Origin: Vicinamibacterales bacterium | GTDB taxonomy: Bacteria > Acidobacteriota > Vicinamibacteria > Vicinamibacterales > JAMQPK01 | DNA length: 64,000 nucleotides | Assembly (NCBI GenBank): GCA_963761975.1 | Contig: CAVXIR010000004.1 | Coordinates: 2,001,877 to 2,065,876, forward strand | Reading direction: 5' to 3' | Position numbers and translations under genes: made by a program | Notes under the pieces: model-generated | Databases searched by the model: none | Told to the model about the DNA's origin: nothing | The model's input: only the letters and a program-made list of their open reading frames with translations | Part shown: piece by piece, positions 8,962 to 61,950 of the stretch | Numbering within the stretch: the stretch's first letter is position 1 | Layout of the letters: the number at the start of each line of letters is the position of its first letter

Positions 8962-10083
8962 ATGAAAGCCATGGCCATCGGGCTCGTGATGAGCGCGATG
9001 CTGACCGTCGATCAACGCGATATGCACCGGTCCGGACTCGACGGCCCTTCGTCCGCCGTCAGCGTTGATGGCCGCTATATCGCGTTCATCACGTATGCGC
9101 AGCTTGCCGGCGCCGACACCGATAATGCGAGTGATGTGTACGTCCTGGATCGGATTCGACAGGAGGTCACATTCGAAAGCCCAGACGTCACGGGCGCGAT
9201 CGATTGTTTCCACGCCGGCATCAGTGGCGACGGCCGCTACCTGGTTTACGAGATGGATGGGTCGATCGTGTGGCGCGACCGAAGCAGGAATGTCACTCGC
9301 ATCGCGGCCGAAGGCCGGCAGCCGTCCATCTCCCACGATGGCCACATCATCGTGTTTGCATCCGGCCGTGACATCTATTCGGTCGACCCGCACAGTGGCA
9401 AAACCAGGCGCATCAGCATCGAGCTGCCAGGTGTCGACGCAGCTCACGCCGGGAGCGTCAAACCCGAGGTCAGCGCCGACGGCAGATACGTGGCTTTCTC
9501 GACGAGGCTGGCGTTCGCAGGTCCTCGTTCACCGGACTCGAGGGTCTTTGTGCGCGACACCGCGCTGAACGTCACCAGGCTTGTCGGAACCGGATGGGCG
9601 CCGTCGATAAGCGGCGATGGCCGGTATGTCGCGTTCGTCGGCCCGGCGGGCAACGTCAGCCACGTCTTCCTGGCCGATCTTCAAACCGGCACGACACGAG
9701 TCATCACGAAGAGCGTGAGGCGCGGGCGGGCCAATGGTTCGAGCGCCAACCCTGGTCTCTCCTCCGACGGCCGCTTCGTCGTGTTTCAATCACAGGCGAA
9801 CGATCTGGTTCGAGAGGAAGACGTCAATCTGTTGTGGGACGTGTTTCTCTACGATCGTACACGCGATACGATTGCGCGGGTCAGCGGCGATTCTGATGAT
9901 GTCTGGATGGAGCCCAGTATCGGGCCTTCCATCGACGGAACGGGTTCGGTGATCGCATTCTCGTCACGCCATCCGACCGGTTTGGCTGACAAGCGCAACG
10001 ATTTCGATCTGTACGTCGCAACGACTCACAGCCCCCGTACTAACGCAGCCTTCTTAACAGAAGACCAGAAGGTCAGAAGATAA
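8962..10083 (+). CDS. TolB/PD40-repeat beta-propeller protein
   Basis: Repeated PSISGDGRYVAF motifs; DTDNASDVYV. Confidence 0.85.
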   Translation: MKAMAIGLVMSAMLTVDQRDMHRSGLDGPSSAVSVDGRYIAFITYAQLAGADTDNASDVYVLDRIRQEVTFESPDVTGAIDCFHAGISGDGRYLVYEMDGSIVWRDRSRNVTRIAAEGRQPSISHDGHIIVFASGRDIYSVDPHSGKTRRISIELPGVDAAHAGSVKPEVSADGRYVAFSTRLAFAGPRSPDSRVFVRDTALNVTRLVGTGWAPSISGDGRYVAFVGPAGNVSHVFLADLQTGTTRVITKSVRRGRANGSSANPGLSSDGRFVVFQSQANDLVREEDVNLLWDVFLYDRTRDTIARVSGDSDDVWMEPSIGPSIDGTGSVIAFSSRHPTGLADKRNDFDLYVATTHSPRTNAAFLTEDQKVRR

Positions 10084-10216
10084 GTACTTGTGATCTGTCC
10101 GTCGCAACGATTCACACACCAATTACTGACGCAGATTCTTGTAACAAAAGATCAGAGTAGAAGGTTAGAGCGTTTTCCGATTGTGCGTAGTTTGCCGGCA
10201 AGGTCTTTTTTTGTCT

Positions 10217-10650
10217 CGACGCCGAGACGCCGAGGCGCAGAGCTGCCGGCGGAAACAGCGAAGCGCTCCCCGTTTTCCTCCGATGATGATCAGCTCGACG
10301 AACAACGCGACGACACGACGAGCGCGACGTCGGAGCACAGCGTGATGGCCTCTGTGGGGTGCGTGAGCGGCCTCTACCGGGCATCGACTTCGTGAGCCGC
10401 GGATGCGGCTCACACAAGAACAAGAGGCGCCACGAATACAGAGCAGCTGGACCGACTGGGCTCTTGTTATTCGTGGCGCTTCTTGTTCTTGTGCGCCAGG
10501 GGCGCGAAGTCGATGCCGTGCTCCCAATCTCCGTGATGTGATGGCCTCGAGTACGTTGGCAGCCGCGCGATCGAGCTCAAAGCAGCGCGCGGCCGGATTC
10601 GTAATCTCTTGAGCTGCGTGTTTTCTCGGCGCCTCTGCGCCTTTGCGTCG
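10217..10650. mobile_element. Putative non-autonomous element: inverted 8-nt-period arrays enclosing structured element copy A
   Basis: Left arm cgacgccgagacgccgaggcgcagag (10217-10242) vs right arm ctcggcgcctctgcgcctttgcgtcg (10625-10650), 21/26 complementary. Confidence 0.5.
10259..10535 (+). ncRNA. Candidate structured RNA (perfect four-way junction), copy A
   Basis: P1 10381-92/10505-16; P2 10393-10412; P3 10413-10493; P4 10494-10504. Covaries with copy B; G.U pair on this strand. Confidence 0.65.
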
Positions 10651-10757
10651 TACTACGCCGATCAGAAAACCGCAATAGAAGGCCACGCAATCGACTGTCG
10701 GTGTGCAGAAAATTCTGCCTCCTCGACTATTCCCGTGCGCAACGATGCAGCTTCATA

Positions 10758-17708: not shown

Positions 17709-18875
17709 TTAGATCCAAAGCAACGGCTGCCGGACAACAAAATTCCGGATCACCTCGTCGACGGTCGGATCCGAGTCCAGTTTCAGCCACAAGTCCACAT
17801 ACTCTGGCCGAACGAGTGCTCGCCCCGCAAATAACAGACTCGGATGGCGAACCGGCCAGTTTTCGTGGTACTGGACGTCGGGTTTATGCGGCCAGCGCGA
17901 TTTATCGGCGATATACGGAAACATGAATTGCATCATCTTGCGCATGCCCCGCCCATCGGGCAATTCGAATCGCCAGAGGTCGTCGCGCGAATCGGATAAC
18001 GTCTGGCAAACGATCGTAAAAGCGTCGAGGTTGAACAGCGAGTAACCGTACGGCTTGGTCCGCGCAATCTCGAGCGGGAAACTGCCGTCCGCCGCCACCT
18101 GTGTCGGAACCAGCACGGTCTTGTAACGGGTGCGACAGAACGTCATGAGCTCTCGATCGCCGGTGTAGCGCGAAAACTCGCCGACCTGCGCGACCCAGCA
18201 CGTGCCGTGGTTGTTCTCTGCGTTGCGCTCATCAATCCCGTACTGATGAGTCGTCATCCAGGTGAGATAGCGCGTGAACCACTCGCGAACACCTGTGCGA
18301 TCGTTCGACGACATCGCGCCCGATCCGTCGAGCACGCTTGCCGCGCGGGCAACCTCCACCAGATGCAGCGTGTCGATGATGCCGATGCCGCGGCCGGTGA
18401 AGTGCCCTTTGATGGCCTGCCCGTAAAGCAGGTGCGGGTTCATCAGCGTGTCGCCGTCGACGAACCAGGCGCGCAGGTGACGCACCGCGTGATCGGCGTA
18501 ACGGCGCTCGCCCGTGACCTTCCACGCTGCCGCAAGTGCAGGCACCTGCAGGCTCAGGCGCACCATCGCCTGCCGATGGCCGACGAAGTTATCCGGATTG
18601 GTCTCGCCGTCACGCCGGATGTACGGGCCGTCGGGATTCTTCGGGTCGGGCCACCAGTAATCACCCTCGGAAAAGAAGTCGTGTTTCCCTCCGGCGCTGC
18701 GCGGACTGCTCGTCGCCGTAATCGTGATTGGGTTTTCGCCGAGGTATTTGTTCGCCGCGCGCAGCACGCGCTCGCGCTCGATGGTGGCGAGGTCGAAAGT
18801 GCGCGCTTGTGCGAGGGCAAGTGTGCCGAGGGACACAACCCCAAAGGGAAGACCGAGAAACGTACGCCTATCCAT
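17709..18875 (-). CDS. Alginate lyase family polysaccharide lyase (Tat-exported)
   Basis: MDRRTFLG Tat signal; SEGDYWWPDP, NNHGTCW, RTKPYGYSLFNL. Confidence 0.9.
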   Translation of the reverse strand: MDRRTFLGLPFGVVSLGTLALAQARTFDLATIERERVLRAANKYLGENPITITATSSPRSAGGKHDFFSEGDYWWPDPKNPDGPYIRRDGETNPDNFVGHRQAMVRLSLQVPALAAAWKVTGERRYADHAVRHLRAWFVDGDTLMNPHLLYGQAIKGHFTGRGIGIIDTLHLVEVARAASVLDGSGAMSSNDRTGVREWFTRYLTWMTTHQYGIDERNAENNHGTCWVAQVGEFSRYTGDRELMTFCRTRYKTVLVPTQVAADGSFPLEIARTKPYGYSLFNLDAFTIVCQTLSDSRDDLWRFELPDGRGMRKMMQFMFPYIADKSRWPHKPDVQYHENWPVRHPSLLFAGRALVRPEYVDLWLKLDSDPTVDEVIRNFVVRQPLLWI

Positions 18876-18913: not shown

Positions 18914-19394
18914 GAGGGCACGGAGGCATATCCCAACACGGAAGGCACGGGGTCACGGAGACGCACGGTGAAGAATTGGCCTATCAAGAGAAATTCTCTG
19001 CCGGTCATTCCTACACGCGCCTGAGAGGGACTGTTCTCAACATGGAGATTGGAAGCCTCGCATCGACGTCGCGCCTCGGGCGCACCCGAACGAGACGACG
19101 CCCGAATATCAAGAGCCAGGAAATCAGTCGCTCTTGTATTCGAGCGTCGTCTCGTTCGGGTGTGGGCCGCAGACGCGGCCCACGACGTCGATGCACCCAC
19201 ACCGAGGGACCTGAGGCCGCCCAGGAAGTCCGTCACGAAGCACGTCGTGCCGTCGTGTCGCCCTGTCCTTCCTCGCTCCAACATTGCTCAAGGAAACGTC
19301 GAGCGCTTCGTCGTGGGTTGCGGCCTCCATCCAGCGCGGAGTAGCTCAGTGCCCCCGTGACTCCGTGTTTAGACACGCAACCCTCCGTGCTCTC
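18914..19394. mobile_element. Putative non-autonomous element: inverted CACGGAG-type arrays enclosing structured element copy B
   Basis: aacacggaaggcacggggtcacggag (18935-60) vs gtgcccccgtgactccgtgtt (19349-69); outer gagggcacggagg / cctccgtgctctc. Confidence 0.5.
19041..19310 (-). ncRNA. Candidate structured RNA (perfect four-way junction), copy B
   Basis: P1 19060-71/19183-94; P4 19072-82; P3 19083-19162; P2 19163-82; reverse-complement homolog of 10259-10535. Confidence 0.65.
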
Positions 19395-19399
19395 CTAAC

Positions 19400-19436
19400 T
19401 TGACGACGACATCAAAATGATATCATAATGATGTCG
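19400..19436 (+). promoter_or_regulatory. Promoter with overlapping 30-bp palindromic operator (probable RHH autoregulation)
   Basis: TTGACG, 18 nt, CATAAT; cgacatcaaaatgat|atcataatgatgtcg. Confidence 0.7.
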
Positions 19437-19447
19437 AGGTCACAGCG

Positions 19448-20326
19448 ATGGCACATGAAAAGGAAGTCGGCGGCCTGTCGGGTTGGCTTATGGTGTTCGT
19501 CATTCTGCTCGTGGGCGTGATCACCGTCTGGATAATGGCCACGTCCGAGACGACGTCACGCGGCCTCGACTGGATCATGGCCGCGGGGGTCGTCATCCTC
19601 GTGCTCGACGGCGTGTGTATCGCCGGTTTCACCGTGGTCAATCCGAATGAAGCGTCGGTCGTCACGCTCTTCGGCGTCTACAAGGGCACCATCAAGCGCG
19701 CCGGGTTCTGGTGGGTCAATCCGCTGACGACGCGACGCAAGCTGTCGTTGCGTGTGCGCAACTTCGAAAGCGCCAAGCTGAAGGTCAACGAGCGCGATGG
19801 CAACCCCATCGAAATCGCGACAGTGGTCGTCTGGCGCATCGTTGAAACCTTCGAAGCGGTCTTCAACGTGGACGACTACGACAACTTCGTGCACGTGCAG
19901 AGCGAGGCGGCCGTGCGAAATCTCGCAACGACCTATCCTTACGATTCGCACGAGGACGCGAAGGTGTCGCTTCGGCTGTCCACCGGCGGCGAGGTCGCCG
20001 ATCGGATGCGCCACGAAATCCAGGAGAGACTCTCGAAAGCCGGCATCGAGGTCATCGAGGCACGCATCAGCCATCTCGCGTACGCCCCGGAAATCGCGGG
20101 CGCGATGCTGAGGAGGCAACAGGCCGCCGCCGTCATTGCCGCGCGGCAGTTGATTGTGGAAGGCGCCGTCGGCATGGTGGAGATGGCGCTCAACGAGCTG
20201 AGCCGCAAGAACGTCGTGGCGCTCGACGAAGAGCGCAAGGCGGCGATGGTGAGCAACCTGCTCGTCGTGTTGTGCAGCGAAAAGGGCGTCGAGCCGGTCG
20301 TCAATACCGGGACGCTGTACCAGTAG
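19448..20326 (+). CDS. SPFH domain membrane protein
   Basis: [43 protein letters not shown]. Confidence 0.93.
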
Positions 20327-29890: not shown

Positions 29891-29902
29891 ACTGGGGTTT
29901 GA

Positions 29903-30018
29903 AAAGGGCTGAGGGCTAAGGGCTGAGGGCTCGCAAAGAGTCGCAAGTCTCAGGTCGAAAGTCGTAAGGCACAAGTCAGTCGGAAGTCGCAAGTTGCAGT
30001 TGAGTCGGAAGTCGCAAG
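29903..30018. repeat. Two abutting 7-nt arrays (AGGGCTG; AGTCGCA)
   Basis: aagggct gagggct aagggct gagggct; agtcgca agtctca ggtcgaa agtcgta ... agtcgga agtcgca. Confidence 0.85.
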
Positions 30019-45240: not shown

Positions 45241-45319
45241 CCATTTCATCGTCGATCGTCCATCGTCGATCGGCAATCGTCTAGACGATGGACGATGGAC
45301 GATCGACGATGGACAATCG
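45241..45319. repeat. Inverted 7-nt array (CATCGTC / GACGATG)
   Basis: catcgtc gatcgtc catcgtc gatcggc aatcgtc ta gacgatg gacgatg gacgatc gacgatg. Confidence 0.88.
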
Positions 45320-45958
45320 TTAAACTCGGGATACCCTACCACGCTCGAGTTCCTGTTTGAAGCGGTCGAAAAGCCTGGCCACGTCGAGGCCATCGACGAG
45401 TGCGTGATGCACTTCGACGGCAACGGGCATTTTCATCCGCCGCCCTTCGCGGACGGCTTGTCCGAAGACGAGGCGCGGAATTGAATCGCCGCGCGGAATC
45501 GCATTCGTGTACGCCGTAAAGCGGAACCACGGCAGCACCGAATGGTAGACGACATCGTCGACGAGCTTTTGCGGCTCCAGCCTCCCCCCTTTCATCGCTT
45601 TCGCGATGGCGGCATTGCCGTTCGTGACGAATTCGTCGAGGGTATCGGCGGGCTCGACCCGCGCGAATCCGAAGGTCTCGTCCGGCCGCCGAATCGTGGG
45701 CCCGACGCCGATGCGATCGTGACGCCACACGCCGCGCGGTCGCAGCCGCAGACGGAATGCTTCGACGTCGTTGACGGCTCTCAACATGAGAAACAGCGAG
45801 GTCAGAAAAAATGAGGGGATCCCCGGCTTGCGGCACTGGTTCCAGACTCGCGTGACGTCGGCATCGACCGTGACGCTGAAAAATGGCTGTTCGTACTTGC
45901 GGAACAACTCATAGTGCTCACGCCGCCTCCATGTCTTCAGATCAATCCAGACGCCCAC
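45320..45958 (-). CDS. CatA-like (chloramphenicol) O-acetyltransferase
   Basis: W-RREHYELF, SVLPWFRFT, VHHALVDGL catalytic motif. Confidence 0.85.
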   Translation of the reverse strand: MGVWIDLKTWRRREHYELFRKYEQPFFSVTVDADVTRVWNQCRKPGIPSFFLTSLFLMLRAVNDVEAFRLRLRPRGVWRHDRIGVGPTIRRPDETFGFARVEPADTLDEFVTNGNAAIAKAMKGGRLEPQKLVDDVVYHSVLPWFRFTAYTNAIPRGDSIPRLVFGQAVREGRRMKMPVAVEVHHALVDGLDVARLFDRFKQELERGRVSRV

Positions 45959-47989: not shown

Positions 47990-48668
47990 TAGCCGGTAGC
48001 TGGTAGCCGGTAGCTGGTAGCCTTTAGCGCGTAGCCAGTAGCTCGTAGCCAGTAGCCAGGTGCGTTGCAAAAACTGCCTAATCACGGAGTTCGCTGGATC
48101 GAACTTCTTGCCACCCAGGAATGGAAATCCGCGCAATTCCACCAGTTTCAGCTGAGCACAGGCGTTGCTCCCCGTACCGCATGCAGACAAATCATTCCTT
48201 TCGCAATCTCACTGTCTGGCAGCGTTCGATGACCCTAGTCGAGGAAATCTACCGAGTTACCAAGCGGTTCCCGCGTGAAGAGTTATTTGGTCTCACCGCC
48301 CAGATCAGAAAGGCAAGCGTTTCGATTCCTTCAAACATCGGGCAGGGAAAGCGTCGTAAACGGGAACGCGCGTTCCTTCATCACCTCGACATTGCGCTCG
48401 GGTCGCAGGGCGAGGTCGACGTTCAGCTGGAGATTGCGTTTCGTGTCGGATTTCTGCCGAAAAAGGAATACACGCAGATTCAGCTCATCGTCGAGGAAGT
48501 GGGGCGAATGCTGAACGGCCTGATAGCATCGATGCAACCAGCCGGTCCAGATCCATGTAGCGTCCTCGCAGTGCAGGTGCGACGAGCCTGGCTACTGGCC
48601 GACCAGCCCCTGGCTACCGGCTGCGGGCACTAGCTCGCTACCGGCCACTAGCTACCGGCTACTCGCTA
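47990..48668. mobile_element. Four-helix-bundle cassette bounded by inverted 7-nt arrays
   Basis: Ten TAGCNNN units at 47990-48059 and a degenerate CCGGCTA array at 48588-48668. Confidence 0.55.
48181..48633 (+). CDS. Four helix bundle protein (23S rRNA IVP / Avd-like family)
   Basis: FRNLTVWQRSM, FPREELFGLTAQIRKASVSIPSNI, IALGSQGEV. Confidence 0.93.
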   Translation: MQTNHSFRNLTVWQRSMTLVEEIYRVTKRFPREELFGLTAQIRKASVSIPSNIGQGKRRKRERAFLHHLDIALGSQGEVDVQLEIAFRVGFLPKKEYTQIQLIVEEVGRMLNGLIASMQPAGPDPCSVLAVQVRRAWLLADQPLATGCGH

Positions 48669-49470
48669 GCTCGTCGTACGTCTTCAAGGCCCGGATCCAG
48701 ATGTTTCGATAGCGCACGGGATTGCCATGATCCTGAAGCACGATCGGACCGCTCGCCATGTCCGGAGTGTAAGGCAGCACGCTCTTGTGCCGTGTCGGCC
48801 CCCAGTACGCTGTACCGTTGTGCACGACGACGCCGTTGTGCAACACCGTAACCGTCGCAGGTTTCTCGAGCGTCGAATCGGCAGCGAACCTCGGCGCAGT
48901 AAAGACGATGTCGTAGGTCTGCCACTCTCCCGGTGCACGTGCGACGTTGACGAGCGGCGGATACTGACCATACATCGCGGCGGCCTGTCCATCGGGGTAG
49001 GTGATGTTCCGATAGCTGTCGAGCACCTGAATTTCGAACTTGCCCAGAAGAAACACGCCGCTGTTGCCACGCCCCTGACTGTCACCTTTTACTTCAGAGG
49101 GCGTCGCGAACTCGACGTGCAGCTGAAGGTCGGTGAAGTGCTGCTTGGTCTGCAGCGTGCCCTTCCCCGTTTGCAGCACGCCATTCTTCATCGTCCAGGT
49201 TGCCGGCGATCCATCGGCCATCTGCCACGAGGTGAGGTCGCTTCGCGCACCGAGCAACACGATGGCATCGGACGGATGCCCGGCGGTGCCGTCCTTGAGC
49301 GGCCCGGGCATGACGACAGCCGGATACGGCCGCGTGCCGTCGTGCACGCGCCATTTGTTGTTCGGCTGCATCGGCGTGTCGTCGTATCCGATCGGCGCCT
49401 GCTGCGCGGATACGGCAACGTGCAGGGTCAATGCAGCGAGGATGACGAACTTATGGTGCAGCATCGCCAA
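48652..49470 (-). CDS. DUF1080 (3-keto-disaccharide hydrolase family) protein
   Basis: GQ-type SQGRGNSGVF, EIQVLDS, GEWQTYDI, LQDHGNPVRYRNIW. Confidence 0.9.
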   Translation of the reverse strand: MAMLHHKFVILAALTLHVAVSAQQAPIGYDDTPMQPNNKWRVHDGTRPYPAVVMPGPLKDGTAGHPSDAIVLLGARSDLTSWQMADGSPATWTMKNGVLQTGKGTLQTKQHFTDLQLHVEFATPSEVKGDSQGRGNSGVFLLGKFEIQVLDSYRNITYPDGQAAAMYGQYPPLVNVARAPGEWQTYDIVFTAPRFAADSTLEKPATVTVLHNGVVVHNGTAYWGPTRHKSVLPYTPDMASGPIVLQDHGNPVRYRNIWIRALKTYDELASSR

Positions 49471-56522: not shown

Positions 56523-56641
56523 CGTCTCGTCCATCGTCCATCGTCCATCGTCCATCGTCCATCGTCCATCGTCTTACGACTCGACTTGCGCCTTACGACT
56601 CGACTTGCGCCTTACGACTTTCGACTTGCGACTTGCGACTT
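56520..56641. repeat. Two abutting 7-nt arrays (CCATCGT x6; CGACTTG)
   Basis: ccatcgt repeated; ttacgactcgacttgcgcc x2; cgacttt cgacttg cgacttg cgactta. Confidence 0.9.
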
Positions 56642-61849: not shown

Positions 61850-61950
61850 ATGGCCCATGGTCAAGGGGCCCAGGGCGCGGGCCAGTTTAGAGATGTGTCA
61901 GGGCAGAGGGCTGAGGGCACAGGGCAGAGGGCAGAGGGCAAAGGGCAGAT
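61850..61950. repeat. 7-nt array (AGGGCAG)
   Basis: cagggca gagggct gagggca cagggca gagggca gagggca aagggca. Confidence 0.88.

Follow-up and report, generated by a model that had tools for sequence, protein, structure and literature searches.

Copy B, the structured element at positions 19060-19194 of the 64,000-nucleotide stretch of DNA analysed here (the window), is on balance likely to form the core, 135 bp of nested palindromes, of an inverted-repeat cassette of 481 bp that has no gene and spreads by copying from one intergenic site to another. It probably works as a structure in DNA, part of a repeat system dispersed by the small, uncharacterised, nuclease-like GxxExxY protein. Our best reading is that the core is structured cargo, at the level of DNA, of a REP/REPIN-like, nuclease-linked repeat system, in which the nuclease is presumed to take part. 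The cassette, its core and its surroundings are as follows (window coordinates):

18914-19394, no strand: composite cassette of copy B, 481 bp, with 13-bp inverted ends (12/13 match)
18914-18975 (inner end approximate), + strand: left arm, an array of 8-9-nt CACGGAG-type units
19345-19394 (inner end approximate), - strand: right arm, an inverted CTCCGTG-type array
19196-19241, - strand: linker module of ~45 nt, which adjoins a P1 arm in 23 of 23 genome hits
19060-19194, no strand: four-way-junction core (copy B), 135 nt, folding on both strands, with boundaries conserved across species
19060-71/19183-94: P1 of copy B, 11-12 bp
19072-82: P4 of copy B, 4-5 bp
19083-19162: P3 of copy B, ~33 bp with a 13-nt loop and one bulge
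19163-82: P2 of copy B, 8-9 bp
10381-10516, inverted relative to copy B: core of copy A, 77% identical over the core
17709-18875, - strand: alginate lyase gene (PF05426), left neighbour outside the element, start codon taken from sequence
19448-20326, + strand: SPFH/Band 7 gene (PF01145), right neighbour outside the element
19400-19429, + strand: sigma-70-like promoter of the SPFH gene, just beyond the cassette and kept in core-free relatives

The original prediction had placed four helices within an element spanning 19041-19310. The sequence bears out all four helices, and the four-way fold is predicted on both strands with z-scores of about -10; the span contains the core but matches neither the conserved core (19060-19194) nor the duplicated unit (18914-19394). 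Folding of the 270-nt stretch around copy B gave -146 kcal/mol on the + strand (z -10.35) and -157 kcal/mol on the - strand (z -9.28), with none of 200 shuffles as low in either case. Under DNA parameters the 135-nt core adopts an identical four-way fold for both strands, while in the RNA energy minimum the junction is displaced by one base pair. Copy A is, as had been proposed, an inverted relative of copy B (124 of 163 positions identical, 76%), and the placing of copy B between divergent alginate lyase (-) and SPFH (+) genes agrees with the PF05426 and PF01145 matches. A search of the whole window against Rfam returned nothing at gathering score, copy B giving just sub-threshold miRNA-type hairpin matches, and Pfam holds no family for the two open reading frames that overlap copy B or the one that overlaps copy A. 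The idea that P3 is a fossil 8-9-nt array was not supported, since the autocorrelation at lag 8 was weak (z 2.0) and that at lag 9 negative. Upstream of copy A, a 43-nt direct repeat (window 10006-10134) overlaps the 3' end of a PD40 gene.

Comparison of its copies shows the core to be conserved in shape more than in sequence. In an alignment of 24 copies, 28 of the 56 pairs change on both sides, with 144 two-sided cells against 21 one-sided. This covariation exceeds that of all 500 shuffles and all slid controls, which lean in the structure's favour since the structure was derived from the same sequences. Of 105 distinct full-length copies, 103 fold into a four-way junction and 78 leave no base unpaired at the junction; the three hairpins span 21-22, 77-79 and 13 nt (interquartile ranges, n=99). 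Copies from distant families keep the layout with changed stems, and a scan for geometry only recovered one copy (L190) that the covariance model had missed. Most of the perfect junctions (74/78) have room to migrate by one base pair or more, like a partly mobile Holliday junction, a property that may simply be inherited.

The expectation that many more copies would be found genome-wide held: a covariance model built on 24 copies counted 26 full-length cores in the source genome, together with one partial copy and four short hairpin-deleted forms, and an iterated profile search of the genome gave 28 hits. A motif scan showed, among the matches listed, derivatives that are split by an insertion sequence or lack entire hairpins (P3 alone or P2 with P3). 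BLAST matched 15 of 24 other genomes of the genus and none of 16 from other families, the best matches mostly covering positions 20-154 of the query, that is, the core. With the covariance model 16 of 25 genus genomes were matched (0 to 77 matches each, both strands counted), and among 151 genomes of the order matches occurred in six genomes from four other families. Most record titles of the pattern hits name Vicinamibacterales; eight of 55 loci are titled otherwise and are probably mislabelled or misbinned, since their cores and flanks resemble the rest. In a phylum-wide sample none of 150 other genomes was positive, with 22 candidates scored per genome under strict filters, and of five pattern matches in viral contigs none was confirmed by the covariance model. 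Of 91 copies, 63 have their nearest neighbour within their own genome, against 13.8 expected, in a sample that favours high-scoring copies. Copy B is an ordinary member of this family, with no sign of a gene-specific role.

The unit that is copied is larger than the core and runs from 18914 to 19394. The copy B cassette has a paralogue on another contig of the source genome (G000:C2:~2073650-2074175), in which the core is 97.8% identical and the whole unit 73%, with indels. Terminal inverted repeats match at 12 of 13 bp in copy B and at 23-25 of 26 bp in five gene-bearing units, and the 10 nt on either side of copy B, its C2 paralogue and those five units showed no target-site duplication. Among 102 copies, the inverted 8-9-nt array motif flanks the core on at least one side in 83 and on both sides in 51; with the same motif set, which the analyst selected from the flanks of cores and GxxExxY loci, 19 copies lack an arm motif, three carry it in the wrong orientation on at least one side, none does so on both, and none of 1,000 random positions has it on both sides. 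Five distinct copies, of which three belong to one subfamily, have the core turned round with respect to the linker. Convergent spacers hold 47 of the 102 copies against a background of 20/114 on contig C3 and are thus enriched, whereas divergent spacers, in which copy B lies, hold 10 of 102 against 39/114 and are depleted (genes taken from a simple purpose-made gene model, with three copies unscorable).

Some cassettes, copy A's included, carry IS630-like outer ends, so other enzymes may move them; one end of the copy A cassette matches an IS630-like element, whereas neither end of the copy B cassette does. The copy A cassette occupies window positions 10166-10678, and the end in question matches the ends of ~1-kb elements that contain a DDE_3 gene. 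Several truncated cores also abut IS630-like ends. Two cores are adjoined by IS110-family transposase genes (L004:750-1880 and L026:2382-3342), the ends of which lie inside short repeat arms, as if an IS110-family element targeted the arrays. Another core has, ~170 nt away and behind an apparent IS end inserted in a repeat arm, a group II intron (L020:2260-4201) whose reading frame looks broken.

At orthologous sites the presence of the core is patchy. At the SPFH promoter, 15 loci could be compared (one truncated locus and one split piece being omitted): the core is present in three, arms alone in one, a different repeat cassette in one and nothing in ten. The two other cores at this site are 65% and 73% identical to copy B. 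The junction between DedA and ABC-ATPase genes has a core in two of 22 loci, in opposite orientations; of the rest, one has the linker region without a core, one is masked, and the others have unrelated repeat arrays or nothing. At an enolase-like site, two of 19 loci have a core, with different arms. The core is thus gained, lost, flipped and trimmed by whole hairpins. The original prediction had looked to relatives for empty sites and target-site duplications: most sites are indeed core-free, but no duplication was seen. Contigs derived from four DNA runs scarcely covered the cassette and yielded no usable empty allele. Fixed presence at the same loci with no other copies would have argued against mobility; we found instead patchiness at orthologous sites and copies throughout the genome.

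Loci L274-L295, from the DedA/ABC-ATPase site, show several unrelated families of 7-9-nt palindromic arrays, or nothing, from one genus member to another, which shows that replacement in this convergent spacer is very fast. Beside the SPFH promoter, six relatives (L161, L163, L165, L167, L170 and L171) retain just the C-terminal part of the alginate lyase, with break points that differ between residues 260 and 362; in G021 and G019 the breaks lie near a repeat cassette, which suggests deletions starting at the cassette site.

The link to GxxExxY (PF13366) begins with the arms. CACGGAG-type arrays like the left arm of copy B are also found upstream of GxxExxY genes, and those of the source genome are enclosed by the same kinds of inverted arrays; most copies of the core lie between inverted 8-9-nt arrays, as GxxExxY genes do. 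Inverted flanks were present at 56 of 64 scorable metagenomic GxxExxY loci, some of which are near-duplicates, against none of 26 controls. A full core lies within ~400 nt of 12 of 153 GxxExxY loci and is missing from the other 141: two of six in the source genome, three of 19 in five other genomes (plus one truncated), three of 48 further genus loci (full-length rows, partial rows being omitted; plus one atypical core and one weak match) and four of 80 metagenomic loci. Eleven of the 12 gene-adjacent cores are downstream of GxxExxY, eight of these 11 in the orientation of the gene, with P4 first, and three reversed. Genome G019 has two units composed of arms, gene and core (L324 and L336; 680 and 675 bp) that are 86% identical, with 25 of 26 bp matching in their inverted ends, unrelated flanks and no target duplication; this paralogy at unrelated sites indicates joint copying of gene and core. 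Close paralogues of whole cassettes, both gene-bearing and gene-less, thus occupy unrelated sites, with no target duplication.

How tight the link between gene and core is can be gauged in several ways. Over 25 genus genomes, in which kin are not independent, the counts of GxxExxY and core matches correlate (rho 0.72), and the three genomes without GxxExxY also have no core; against a tight link, six genomes have GxxExxY matches but no core match. A tree of 102 proteins, made quickly and poorly resolved, has the loci with a core scattered over it, at a cost of eight changes for 13 labelled rows. In the source genome, 12 core copies were found in 66 motif-defined cassettes against two of six at GxxExxY loci, a share that is not clearly lower. 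With the core similarly common in cassettes generally, its association with the gene may be only that of a shared wrapper.

Residues D62, E72, K74, Q86 and Y90 are invariant in 17 GxxExxY sequences, and we take them to be a PD-(D/E)XK site with a Cas4/RecB-type QxxxY motif. The predicted structure (pLDDT 87.6) points to a PD-(D/E)XK fold; a search of solved structures gave no sequence match. Foldseek ranked Cas4 SSO0001 first, with no match at E<=0.001, and a structure search returned a restriction-like fold (Z 7.2, rmsd 3.4, 94 aligned), Cas4 SSO0001 (Z 6.9, rmsd 4.3, 96 aligned) and Hjc (Z 6.3, rmsd 3.4, 81 aligned), none of the matches reaching Z 8. On these tied scores Holliday-junction resolvases match the GxxExxY fold no better than PD-(D/E)XK enzymes of other kinds do, and a junction-resolving activity is possible, not indicated.

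Two other candidate partners were rejected. Four Y1_Tnp loci, representing a RAYT partner, had neither the core nor CACGGAG-type arms by eye, and three of them carry GTAG-type repeats; Y1 transposase-like genes with GTAG-type palindromes of their own, unrelated to the core, lie at G000:C7:1577585, C6:423779 and C4:875133. A four-helix-bundle (PF05635) partner fared no better, none of 14 loci over the cut-off being within 28 kb of a core. One such gene in the window (48202-48519) is set between inverted heptamer arrays (~47990-48670), the genome has 14 of these genes over the cut-off, and PF05635 genes in arrays are a parallel system of small genes in arrays. Further intergenic heptamer tandem arrays and palindromes occur at 45247-45322, 56525-56640, 29897-29977 and 61885-61946.

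We propose that, in single-stranded or supercoiled DNA, the arms would pair and the core would fold into a four-way junction, that a GxxExxY protein supplied in trans would cut one strand at the arms or at the junction, and that repair from another cassette would then copy whatever lies between the arms, be it a gene, the core or nothing. The core would accordingly be an optional module within the cassette, its shape probably kept because some protein recognises it. We also advance, as a doubtful extension, that cassettes with GxxExxY represent a kind of mobile element not yet described, in which a minimal Cas4-like nuclease would recognise a self-folding four-way DNA junction, a built-in mimic of a Holliday junction, and use it to set off recombinational copy-and-paste that leaves no target duplication; the 135-nt core would be its dedicated substrate and the gene-less cassettes its parasites.

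A minor though appreciable chance attaches to the core being a passive passenger, its pairing kept by template-switch repair of quasi-palindromes and its spread owed to host recombination or gene conversion between arrays, or to MITEs with IS630-like ends, with no role for GxxExxY. Template-switch repair gives two-sided changes without strand bias, which is what the core displays; exact deletions of hairpins are frequent, IS630-like ends surround some cassettes, and more than nine-tenths of GxxExxY loci (141/153) do without a full core. Repair accounts for the pairing, however, and not for arm lengths that stay constant across families with little sequence similarity, the copy B cassette has no IS630-like ends, and in 11 of 12 gene-adjacent cases the core sits downstream of GxxExxY.

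That same position, together with the gene's orientation in eight of 11 cases, the strong covariation and the fixed geometry, would suit a structured non-coding RNA such as a 3' RNA partner of GxxExxY, the gene-less copies then being stand-alone transcription units. We consider this quite improbable. When folding was restricted to Watson-Crick pairs, 62 G-T and 64 A-C mismatches remained (p 0.93), favouring neither strand; none of 75 tetraloops is of GNRA type on either strand and one is UUCG, P4 having loops of three bases in 73 of 102 copies; and most copies are without unpaired junction bases. The core is flipped relative to its flanks in some copies and reversed behind GxxExxY in three of 11, and in tandem gene contexts its orientation shows no bias to the host genes (26:19, p 0.37). 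At copy B we found no promoter or terminator of its own, the sole promoter-like site being that of the SPFH gene, and no Rfam family at gathering score. The suggestion in the original prediction that the unit is independently transcribed was thus not upheld.

Retron RNA has a closing stem that encloses short hairpins and one long hairpin. The core resembles this arrangement, and two reference titles in the part of PMC6868368 consulted name dispersed copies of such a kind for Nannocystis. An origin as retron msr-msd derivatives scattered by retrotransposition is nevertheless largely refuted: one of ten reverse-transcriptase loci lies within 20 kb of a core, and that locus has a group II intron maturase domain, while the core itself offers no unpaired segment for priming and no strand bias. 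It is equally hard to credit that copy B controls the alginate lyase or SPFH gene in cis, a role that the original prediction had also set aside, despite its place between both gene starts and beside the SPFH promoter: 12 of 15 orthologous SPFH loci keep the promoter without a core, other copies have unrelated neighbours, and divergent spacers are depleted.

The reading that we favour, structured DNA cargo in a nuclease-linked repeat system, has close counterparts. In REP/REPIN, RAYT and BIME systems, so far as the consulted parts of PMC3116915 and PMC3184786 describe them, extragenic palindromic repeats occur as inverted doublets with compensatory changes, also flank the gene of a small nucleic-acid enzyme, are inserted within or beside one another, lie preferentially in convergent spacers and are targeted by insertion sequences, all as seen here; the REPIN feature, a multi-copy extragenic inverted repeat doublet that forms a hairpin, is likewise present. 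Unlike RAYT, a HUH tyrosine transposase, the partner here is a PD-(D/E)XK protein; it is multi-copy and moves with the arms, which are arrays of 8-9-nt units rather than GTAG-headed REPs, and the cargo is a four-way junction of fixed geometry. A second counterpart is SsnA with its NTS/SRM repeats, in which, according to the sections of PMC11893778 available, a small single-domain nuclease gene lies between hairpin repeats that also occur scattered over the genome, and this GIY-YIG ssDNA nuclease is a tested precedent for cutting a cognate hairpin as ssDNA. The link is architectural only, the partner here being PF13366 with a PD-(D/E)XK fold, and whereas NTS is, in the same sections, one ~30-nt hairpin of conserved sequence, the core is 135 nt long with shape kept over sequence.

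The core is also like bcr1 of the Bacillus cereus group, which in the portion of PMC3184786 at hand is ~155 bp long, dispersed and cruciform-like, with compensatory changes and non-conserved positions; bcr1 has 5-bp direct repeats and is transcribed, whereas no duplication was seen here. The core moreover sits in repeat arrays, the hosts are unrelated, and the two are likened by description, not by sequence. With classical MITEs of DDE transposases the cassette shares terminal inverted repeats, but not the target-site duplication. PF13366 (GxxExxY, also PDDEXK_3) is given as of unknown function in the available part of PMC3424549, and the myRT preprint (10.1101/2021.01.26.428298), in the extract consulted, merely mentions the domain. 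In the literature searched, with most subscription papers and all supplements outside its scope, there was no description of the element and no link of GxxExxY to repeats or to a junction-forming element. It is apparently an unpublished variant of nuclease-linked palindromic repeats, set apart from REP/RAYT, SRM/Ssn and bcr1 by its partner enzyme or by target duplication.

GxxExxY is a widespread prokaryotic family, for which the cassette offers two candidate substrates, the inverted 8-9-nt arrays and the four-way junction of fixed geometry, and the duplicated arms-gene-core unit, with its defined ends, supplies an example cassette. Such concrete candidates make the activity of GxxExxY directly testable in vitro. 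If GxxExxY does cut structures of this kind, the system would add a third architecture that pairs a nuclease with repeats, after REP/RAYT and SRM/Ssn, and would help to account for how very rapidly intergenic DNA is replaced in these Acidobacteriota from soil.
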